A DNA stretch of 33,255 nt from IMG/VR virus record IMGVR_UViG_2667527666_000008. One strand, given 5' to 3'. Both the position numbers and the translations under genes were made by a program. This document shows positions 24,628 through 25,268 of this stretch, piece after piece (position 1 is the first letter of the stretch; every line of letters starts with the position of its first letter). The notes under the pieces were generated by a model. That model made no database searches. It was not told the origin of the DNA and saw only the letters and a program-made list of their open reading frames with translations. The stretch comes from a virus. Lineage: Duplodnaviria; Heunggongvirae; Uroviricota; Caudoviricetes.

Positions 24628-24721
24628 GCAGAATATTTTGCTGAAAAATAAGGCATGGCCACGCGGGCGGATAACACGAAATCCTGCGAACTGGCGAAAC
24701 GTAAGTGAATAAAAGTAAAAA

Positions 24722-24760
24722 CCCCGTTTGTTGGCAGCAAGCGGGGTTTTGTTTTTATGG
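24722..24760 (+). terminator. Terminator-like hairpin within the lysis region
   Basis: CCCCGTTTG-ttggcag-CAAGCGGGG followed by TTTTGTTTTT. Confidence 0.4.
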
Positions 24761-24821
24761 CAGTAAGCTATGGGAGGCTGCCTTGATTGATTTTAGCAAA
24801 CTGATTAGGGAGTTGCGACTC

Positions 24822-24917
24822 ATGATTAGTCAATTACCAAACTGGAAATTTTTGCTGGTCTGGAGCATCCCTTTTTTATGGGTAGTATCCCAGTTAATTG
24901 TGGCAATTAAGGGGTAG
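24822..24917 (+). CDS. Putative tiny membrane peptide (31 aa)
   Basis: MISQLPNWKFLLVWSIPFLWVVSQLIVAIKG: a single hydrophobic helix; weak ribosome-binding site. Confidence 0.25.
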   Translation: MISQLPNWKFLLVWSIPFLWVVSQLIVAIKG

Positions 24918-24919
24918 CT

Positions 24920-25051
24920 ATGTCAGACAAACTCATAACGCCGGCAAAGGTCCTGTGTGTGATTGTCGGTATTTCATTTTCACTAATGCTGGTTGCTCTT
25001 TTTCTGTCCCTCGCCTGGGTGATGTTGTCTTCGTCGGGGCTGCTGGGGTGA
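24920..25051 (+). CDS. Putative tiny membrane peptide (43 aa)
   Basis: AAGGGG ribosome-binding site; MSDKLITPAKVLCVIVGISFSLMLVALFLSLAWVMLSSSGLLG. Confidence 0.35.
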   Translation: MSDKLITPAKVLCVIVGISFSLMLVALFLSLAWVMLSSSGLLG

Positions 25052-25170
25052 CAGTGACTGATGACATCAGCAGAGCGCTGGCTTTTGCTATTAAGTGGGT
25101 GGCTGTTGGTATTGCTGTGTCTCCGATGCTGTATGGGCTGGCAAAACTGGTCATTGCGCTGAAATCGTGA
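25048..25170 (+). CDS. Putative tiny membrane peptide (~40 aa), paralog of the next ORF
   Basis: GTG start after GGGG; '...ISRALAFAIKWVAVGIAVSPMLYGLAKLVIALKS' is similar to the following peptide at both protein and DNA level. Confidence 0.3.
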   Translation: MTVTDDISRALAFAIKWVAVGIAVSPMLYGLAKLVIALKS

Positions 25171-25181
25171 ACTTTAAAAAG

Positions 25182-25268
25182 ATGAGTGCTGAACTTATTC
25201 GGGCAATGGCATTTGCCATTCGTATTGTGGCCATTGCTGTTCTGGTCTGGGCAATCCGTTGGTGGTGA
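25182..25268 (+). CDS. Putative tiny membrane peptide (28 aa), paralog of the previous ORF
   Basis: [28 protein letters not shown]; its stop abuts the Rz start codon. Confidence 0.3.

Follow-up and report, generated by a model that had tools for sequence, protein, structure and literature searches.

The stretch of DNA analyzed here (the window; 33,255 nucleotides [nt], virus record IMGVR_UViG_2667527666_000008) is an Escherichia coli lambdoid prophage, and our subject is the spacer that separates the endolysin gene R from the spanin gene Rz in its lysis cassette. R ends at 24627 and Rz starts at 25270, leaving a spacer of 642 bp (24628-25269) within an interval, 24600-25300, that is 100% identical to several E. 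coli chromosomes. A first-pass annotation of the window had put this gap at about 640 bp, had taken an endolysin gene abutting Rz as the normal arrangement, and had seen in the gap a terminator-like hairpin and a tandem array of four tiny hydrophobic peptides. The measured length agrees with its estimate, and the K-12 prophages Qin and DLP12, in which R overlaps Rz and the spacer is absent, conform to its baseline. The hairpin is likewise present at 24718-24750, followed by a T-run (z = -5.75).

Four small open reading frames (ORFs) on the + strand, which we call genes A to D, occupy the spacer beyond the hairpin. Gene A (24783-24917; 44 amino acids [aa], MIDFSKLIRELRLMISQLPNWKFLLVWSIPFLWVVSQLIVAIKG) has a TTG start, a basic N terminus, and a C-terminal transmembrane (TM) helix. 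This ORF had earlier been read as a 70-codon GTG frame (24705-24917) or as 31 codons from the ATG at 24823. Homologs of A in Enterobacter, Citrobacter, Klebsiella, Providencia, Salmonella, and E. coli begin exactly at the position of MIDFSKLIRELR, which fixes the start in the window at TTG 24783, and a Shine-Dalgarno sequence, GGGAGG (24772-24777), lies 5 nt upstream. Gene B (24920-25051; 43 aa, MSDKLITPAKVLCVIVGISFSLMLVALFLSLAWVMLSSSGLLG; WP_001280935) begins with ATG 2 nt after the stop of A, has a conserved Shine-Dalgarno sequence, AAGGGG, and encodes one strongly hydrophobic TM helix. Gene C (25048-25170; about 40 aa, (M)TVTDDISRALAFAIKWVAVGIAVSPMLYGLAKLVIALKS) begins with a GTG that overlaps the stop codon of B (GTGA); a GTG at 25054 is an alternative start. 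Gene D (25182-25268; 28 aa; WP_032140280) follows C by 11 nt, has an ATG start, and is a C paralog of the short-N-terminus D subfamily. A single nucleotide separates its stop codon from the ATG of Rz, and the Shine-Dalgarno sequence of Rz, GGTGGTGA, overlaps the last codons of D. The Prokaryotic Genome Annotation Pipeline (PGAP) already calls B and D as hypothetical proteins, C in a doubtful 51-aa form, and the 70-aa form of A in some records.

Each of the four ORFs contains a 19-residue Kyte-Doolittle window above 1.6 (1.90 to 2.87), in agreement with the earlier description of four single-helix ORFs on the + strand; the range of 28 to 43 codons given with that description fails for the first ORF, which is longer at 44 aa. 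The earlier reading of C and D also needs correction, in that C starts at a non-ATG codon and, compared with the rest of their family, both genes are truncated at the N terminus. Of 24758-25269, 95% is covered by hydrophobic ORFs of 28 codons or more; the mean in dinucleotide shuffles is 29% (P = 0.0007). By direct reading, only 1 to 7 residues follow the helix (KG, SSSGLLG, KS, and RWW), and these short C termini, together with the basic N termini, lead us to predict an N-in, tail-anchored topology. The way in which A to D are spaced and overlap suggests that translation is coupled from one gene to the next, as far as Rz.

Homologous loci for comparison were drawn from genomes of E. coli, from phages in GenBank, and from publicly available assemblies. 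In A, B, and C, the proposed + frame contains no stops and has the lowest ratio of nonsynonymous to synonymous polymorphism (pN/pS) of the six frames. The ratio of nonsynonymous to synonymous substitution rates (dN/dS) is 0.23 to 0.38 for A across genera, 0.2 to 0.46 for B, and 0.05 to 0.14 for C between E. coli and Salmonella copies, with dS above 1 and with 5, 2, and 21 differences at codon positions 1, 2, and 3. The Shine-Dalgarno sequences before A and B are kept in every context despite differing flanking DNA, and one is also kept before the MKNG start of the C/D family in unrelated contexts. These comparisons indicate that A, B, and C are very probably real genes under purifying selection, and the proposal of the first-pass annotation that the ORFs are small membrane-protein genes thus gains support from both ratios for these three. 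The coding evidence for D is weak. Its core is nearly invariant and differs from the copy in locus L031 by three synonymous and no nonsynonymous changes, while the comparison with locus L013 gives one synonymous and four nonsynonymous changes. Polymorphism within the window's own haplotype was uninformative because the six full-length copies compared differ at only 2 sites in the hairpin and A-D block. A minus-strand ORF of 123 aa (24933-25304) was rejected as a shadow frame, as the + frame has the lower pN/pS in A, B, and C. The idea that the ORFs serve only as translational couplers was rejected for A, B, and C on account of their low dN/dS and is kept as a possibility for D.

Profile searches assign the four genes to PHROG families that are all labeled "unknown function": A, in its 70-aa frame, matches phrog_6632 (E = 1.3e-12), B matches phrog_4906 (E = 4.5e-21), C matches phrog_1115 (E = 6.4e-25), and D matches phrog_4493 (E = 3.8e-6), with phrog_4493 and phrog_3246 matched by both C and D. 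Pairwise similarity is not significant for A-B, A-D, B-C, or B-D and is nominal for A-C (p = 0.008). A, B, and C/D are thus, as judged from these comparisons, three unrelated families. The Smith-Waterman score of C against D is 47, compared with 23.2 +/- 4.6 in composition-preserving shuffles (p = 2e-4), and their full-length relatives, C-long (MEKYKRILLRLTMKNGLELKAPVTDDISRALAFAIKW...) and D-long (VRKYKRFFLRLSIMKGIEVETPASLDLIRAAAFAIRI...), score 109 against 23.6 +/- 4.7. The paralogy proposed earlier for the last two ORFs is therefore upheld at the protein level. A noncoding repeat, which had been named as a possible cause of the likeness, does not explain it: Tandem Repeats Finder (TRF) detected no DNA tandem repeat, the best in-register C/D DNA match is 15 nt at 80%, DNA identity is about 56% over the aligned 57 nt (direct reading), and six of the nine identical aligned residues use different codons (direct reading; e.g., Arg AGA versus CGG). 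We therefore regard C and D as true paralogs at the protein level, as far as sequence can tell, rather than as a DNA repeat.

The C/D family has the pattern MKNGLE-x-DAP ... A-x-AFAI[KR] ... TM and often ends in RWW just before Rz. In the window, C is fused directly behind B, and D has the short N terminus MxAEL[IL]RA, which elsewhere follows a 65-aa gene, E65, and which forms a recurrent subfamily found in 122 index blocks of contigs. Natural hybrids occur: P0078 joins a C-type N terminus to a D-type C terminus, and P0048 has the reverse arrangement. Clustered at 90% identity, the homologs of C fall into 69 groups, every one of them from E. coli or Salmonella; homologs of D were searched via its 57-aa out-of-frame extension, and screening 1.84 billion representatives with a C/D profile yielded no more than 29 clusters at 50% identity. 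Full-length C/D genes contain two start codons in the same frame, and each of the two has a Shine-Dalgarno sequence of its own; the starts differ by a KYKR-rich basic N-terminal extension. At two loci (L015, 2470-2503; L025, 1935-1964), a mini-ORF of 8 codons (MCREVYSL* or MGREVLSL*) that has a Shine-Dalgarno sequence of its own ends in a TGA that overlaps the GTG start of a long-form C/D gene, and it may be a leader for translational coupling.

The part of the spacer upstream of gene A comprises two elements. A noncoding segment directly after R (24628-24717, + strand) is common to almost all R-Rz spacers, including those of phage 933W and of Salmonella. In it, a hypervariable block (24643-24667) adjoins a conserved motif, CGGATAACACGAAATCC; in the copy from Salmonella, this motif forms a palindrome of 7 bp. 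The frame of this segment is not open consistently across loci, and the segment could be an RNA element or a recombination linker. Next comes the hairpin (24718-24757, stem region 24718-24750), which resembles an intrinsic terminator with 15 to 16 pairs, a GC-rich stem, an A-run before it, and a T-run after it; these flanking runs make it potentially bidirectional. Its predicted RNA fold has an energy of -25 kcal/mol (the z score above is relative to 200 shuffles), and its sixth stem pair varies in a compensatory manner (T-G, A-T, and G-C; direct reading). Loci of E. coli, Salmonella, Enterobacter, and Citrobacter have an equivalent hairpin upstream of their small genes. From the hairpin of the window to Rz, our search gave no sigma-70-like promoter on the + strand and no terminator-like site with a stem above 5 bp. 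Rfam searches (the whole window at the gathering threshold; 24500-25400 by E value) gave nothing credible in the spacer, the best match being ohsC with 20 bits against a gathering score of 50. The prophage small RNAs (sRNAs) Pas, AsxR, and AgvB were also rejected as spacer content: the Pas sRNAs map between esterase and holin genes, the position that Tree et al. give for anti-sRNAs is 3' of pR', and none of these is placed in the R-Rz spacer.

The first-pass annotation treated the spacer as an unusual feature, which our survey does not bear out. Of 5426 complete E. coli genomes, 2181 contain parts of it and 588 the full arrangement, the copies in E. coli number roughly 7000, and gene B is found in 276 phage records, many of them Shiga toxin (Stx)-converting phages and 933W among them. 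The modules are almost always preceded by an equivalent hairpin and directly followed by Rz-type spanin genes. Upstream, they follow four endolysin types, namely, SAR (signal-anchor-release) lysozyme (the window and L015), GH108 (L018), M15 peptidase (L031), and GH19 (L033), and they accompany different holins in E. coli, Salmonella, and Enterobacter. The order and number of genes also vary. Other prophages have C-long then B, A then B, E65 then D, a single A/D-like 57-aa gene, or ant and a truncated A followed by B, C, and D, and an arrangement with a single D-long gene occurs in 2585 index blocks of contigs. The order in 933W, as in many Stx phages, is ant followed by B, which is unannotated there; in 933W, B is coupled to ant (TAATG), and its stop lies 8 nt before Rz.

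Three further arrangements were observed in this survey. In E. coli phages with holin_8/holin_3_7/GH108 (L018-L020, 2307-2961), the order is endolysin, hairpin, E65, a C-like gene, and a B-like gene, and then a lipoprotein gene; the lipoprotein is Cys rich, 51 to 60 aa long, and matches phrog_7528, and no Rz/Rz1 was called in that stretch. In a Salmonella prophage (L015, 2223-2312), a 29-aa hydrophobic ORF, MICFVAAFMLACDGRSGWGWFLLVGLIVM, overlaps the lysozyme stop codon (ATGA) and has a weak match to phrog_14810. At another Salmonella locus (L021, 2356-2668; L022, 165-528), two tandem C-family paralogs of 47/64 aa and 55 aa follow a SASA esterase gene in a remnant from which holin and endolysin are absent, an arrangement indicating that tandem pairs recur independently of the window.

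The core of the window's D gene is identical to that of D-type genes standing alone in other prophages. Because C-type and D-type genes are separate in other prophages, we interpret the array in the window as a recombinational mosaic. A duplicated module, as the first-pass annotation had suggested, is not what we find, given that A, B, and C/D are unrelated and that C-type and D-type genes stand separately elsewhere; a local tandem duplication from C to D was rejected in view of the absent TRF repeat and the low DNA identity. The hairpin and A-D block (24718-25268) has its 2 variable sites against 18 in the 60 nt after R across the same six full-length copies (L001, L002, and L036-L039), and the R and Rz alleles differ among copies that share this near-invariant block. 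We take the block to be a single haplotype that spread recently and was joined by recombination to differing alleles of R and Rz. Lysogens with this exact block include O55:H7 CB9615, O103:H2 12009, 55989, and O104:H4 2011C-3493.

We compared the peptides with known small membrane proteins of phages and bacteria. A, B, C, D, and the 70-aa frame have no Pfam match at E <= 1, whereas the true holin of the cassette (23025-23240) matches PF04971; NCBIfam gave no match for any peptide, and PADLOC defense profiles gave none at E <= 1. Holins and antiholins (S21 68/71, lambda S105/S107) are likewise small inner-membrane proteins of the late lysis operon, and the two in-frame starts of full-length C/D genes resemble a dual-start motif. 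Unlike holins, however, the peptides lack a charged C-terminal tail, have one TM helix, lie downstream of R, and do not match a holin Pfam family. They also differ from spanins, as a length of 28 to 44 aa with a C-terminal TM helix rules out a periplasmic domain, there is no lipobox, and the cassette already has Rz/Rz1. P2 LysA, which is nonessential and annotated as "affects timing of lysis," occupies the same cassette slot, between endolysin K and lysB/lysC, but it is a protein of 141 aa with several hydrophobic segments, in contrast to the single helix of the 28- to 44-aa peptides. Homology of LysA with A, B, C, D, or E65 was rejected, the best match (E = 0.04 in a one-subject search) being hydrophobic low complexity.

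Small single-TM proteins have been described as lysis factors in other phages. Lcc6 of the Shewanella phage LambdaSo, a single-TM protein of 65 aa that had not been annotated as a lysis factor before, is essential for lysis and acts at the holin step in a pinholin/SAR-endolysin/Rz-Rz1 system, where depolarization at the pinholin level requires it; it has an N-terminal TM helix (aa 5-22) and a 43-aa cytoplasmic tail and is encoded far from the lysis cassette (bioRxiv 10.1101/2024.01.23.576932). By description, the window peptides differ in being C-terminally anchored, inside the cassette, and evidently dispensable. Mu gp25 releasin (DUF2730) is a membrane-tethered accessory protein that controls SAR endolysin release (PMC9239132). 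Unlike gp25, the peptides have no DUF2730 match, carry a C-terminal TM helix, and have partners that include GH108, M15, and GH19 endolysins; since the families also occur with non-SAR endolysins, a releasin mechanism is not indicated. We therefore rate A-D as new, uncharacterized small phage membrane proteins of the late lysis operon that belong to PHROG families of unknown function.

Based on these observations, we hypothesize that the small late membrane-peptide genes act as accessory inner-membrane lysis modulators. We rank this reading first in view of the position, which is like that of P2 lysA, and of the small single-TM lysis factors in LambdaSo and Mu. According to this hypothesis, the spacer would be a mosaic block of four small late genes from three unrelated, uncharacterized phage families, each encoding a peptide that is N-in, C-terminally anchored, and single pass in the inner membrane. 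The block would be transcribed only within the Q-antiterminated late (pR') lysis transcript, as suggested by the lack of a + strand promoter of its own behind a terminator-type hairpin, and it would be translated as a coupled chain from A through B and C to D that feeds ribosomes into Rz/Rz1. In the last minutes of infection, the peptides would make helix-helix contacts within the inner membrane, their partner being the pinholin, the membrane segment of the endolysin, or the Rz TM domain, and the effect would be an altered timing or efficiency of lysis rather than an essential function. Late cotranscription, translational coupling, topology, and a lysis role of A-D are all things that we infer; D and the truncated C of the window may be weakened or inactive versions. 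Taken as a whole, the statement is tentative and has, in our judgment, slightly less than an even chance of being correct, and a lysis role of any kind, considered by itself, is less certain still. We consider doubtful the broader proposition that the spacer peptides (A, B, C/D, and E65) form an unrecognized, widespread class of lysis accessories in enterobacterial lambdoid phages that tune pinholin triggering, endolysin release, or spanin activation via TM-helix contacts. If it were true, they would be Lcc6-like "fourth components" of lysis and, in Stx phages, would also influence the timing of toxin release.

Several observations weigh against a role as lysis modulators. In profile and pairwise searches, holins, antiholins, spanins, releasin, and P2 LysA showed no homology to the peptides, and a search of the literature with RefSeq accessions, stretches of the peptide sequences, and the phrase "between R and Rz" turned up no paper that names them. 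The families accompany canonical as well as SAR endolysins, which makes a SAR-specific mechanism unlikely. An A-like gene in Citrobacter lies between the tail genes I and J with hairpins on both sides, like a free-standing moron. The near-invariance of the A-D block means that its prevalence may reflect recent spread rather than selection. In addition, C and D in the window both lack MKNGLE-DAP, the most conserved N-terminal motif of their family, and decayed copies exist elsewhere (a stop in A in L009; frameshifted C in L005, P0056, and P0067), indicating that these genes are dispensable.

Some of these points could be accommodated if the peptides were passengers, that is, membrane peptides of the "moron" type that sit in a permissive recombination hot spot of the late operon and whose function, such as superinfection exclusion, modulation of the host membrane, or a benefit to the lysogen, is unrelated to lysis. 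The R-Rz junction does host unrelated cargo such as ant, no fixed order or number of modules is kept, the hairpin and the small genes move together from one endolysin type to another, and the hairpin-flanked A-like gene between I and J fits the same picture. The layout in the window is nevertheless unlike that of a moron, as the hairpin is upstream of the genes rather than downstream, no terminator-like stem above 5 bp precedes Rz, and no promoter-like site that could serve lysogenic expression was detected on the + strand from the hairpin to Rz. Moreover, the genes are predicted to be coupled into Rz, a PADLOC defense match is absent, and the modules lie inside lysis cassettes in all sampled contexts but one. 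On balance, we regard a passenger role as possible but unlikely. We find it improbable that the ORFs are largely nonfunctional in the window, as translational couplers to Rz or decaying remnants, above all D and the truncated C. The missing N-terminal motif, the pseudogenized copies, the preponderance of nonsynonymous changes between D and L013 (four against one), and the nonsynonymous nature of both polymorphisms inside the block all fit decay, and D, which lacks a Shine-Dalgarno sequence and whose last codons coincide with that of Rz, fits a coupler. This account is opposed by the strong purifying selection that comparisons across genera show for the A, B, and C families, by the recurrence of the short N-terminal form, by the exclusively synonymous changes between the D core and L031, and by the retention of the C-terminal RWW in Citrobacter, where Rz is not downstream.

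Two other explanations fare less well. The peptides have a size and a single hydrophobic helix similar to those of type I toxins (Hok, TisB, Ldr, Ibs, ShoB, and Zor), prophages often carry type I systems, and a sok match lies elsewhere in the window. One could thus imagine depolarizing peptides held in check by a minus-strand antisense RNA that runs from 24926-24897 to the bidirectional hairpin. A minus-strand promoter-like site (CTGACA-18-CACAAT) with an upstream TG is present, and the hairpin has a T-run on the minus strand too. However, this site scores 9/12, and the number of such sites does not exceed chance (2 found, 4.4 expected in shuffles); by direct reading, its -10 element is absent where B sits in other contexts. 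Unlike type I toxin genes, A-D have no independent promoter for a peptide mRNA and no Rfam toxin or antitoxin family match (the ohsC hit falls well below its gathering score), and they are embedded in the lysis operon and predicted to be coupled to Rz. We consider a type I module highly improbable. Least credible of all is a noncoding region in which the ORFs and the C/D likeness arise from a DNA repeat, from composition, or from the minus-strand ORF. That long ORF does exist, and its frame (-2) has the second-lowest pN/pS, albeit as expected from the wobble positions it shares with the true frame. The + frame is best in all three families, the TRF and in-register comparisons count against a repeat, the shuffle tests for coverage (P = 0.0007) and for C/D (p = 2e-4) argue against composition, and the reordering of modules (C-B versus B-C) would break any long minus-strand ORF.

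Lysis by phages of Gram-negative bacteria is usually described in terms of holins, endolysins, and spanins. Mu releasin and LambdaSo Lcc6 show that small membrane proteins can be hidden extra lysis components, and here, in a very common group of prophages from E. coli and Salmonella, the lysis cassette contains conserved small membrane-protein genes, of which B is unannotated in the reference Stx2 phage 933W. If the peptides alter lysis timing, burst size would be affected and, in Stx phages, so would the timing of toxin release. If they are irrelevant to lysis, the locus is still a hot spot of recombination in which mini-genes are shuffled along with a terminator hairpin.

The remainder of the lysis cassette is as follows. 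An S21-type class II (pin)holin gene (23025-23240, + strand; PF04971 Phage_holin_2_1, E = 2.3e-32) encodes a dual-start MYQMEK N terminus, and its length of 216 nt equals that of the PGAP "class II holin" model in locus L002. A DUF1327/YdfR-like gene (23245-24051) lies between holin and endolysin; its product of 268 aa, compared with 104 to 116 aa in related prophages, has an extra C-terminal half (phrog_1085). R (24094-24627, + strand; 177 aa) encodes a SAR-type phage lysozyme (PF00959, E = 5.6e-24; phrog_7 endolysin; lysozyme in RefSeq) with an N-terminal hydrophobic segment rich in Gly/Ala. Rz (25270-25764, + strand; 164 aa) encodes the i-spanin (PF03245, E = 4.4e-51; phrog_13 Rz-like spanin), and the o-spanin gene Rz1 (25490-25675, + strand) lies inside it in the +1 frame, with a lipobox, LVVSAC, and a Pro-rich mature part (direct reading); PF06085 Rz1 was matched at the equivalent site in loci L027 and L030. 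A 74-aa ORF (25761-25985) that overlaps the Rz stop codon (ATGA) matches phrog_2571, a family of unknown function, and is a hypothetical protein in RefSeq.

Upstream of the holin gene, the gap at 22875-23024 that separates it from a SASA-family esterase gene (21021-22874) contains a terminator-like hairpin of 12 pairs followed by a T-run (22957-22985). This gap has no Rfam family match; the prophage sRNAs PasA and PasC have been reported from the esterase-holin slot (bioRxiv 10.64898/2026.05.13.724894). Across the window, Rfam at the gathering threshold yielded matches at 12664-12839, 4546-4597 (minus strand), 10418-10534 (minus strand), 19796-20042, 20121-20311, and 20589-20798 to the sok antitoxin, DicF, the ALIL pseudoknot, three tRNAs, and two STnc100 RNAs. 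The sok match implies a hok/sok-type module elsewhere in the window, and the match to the ALIL frameshift pseudoknot implies an IS3-family element.

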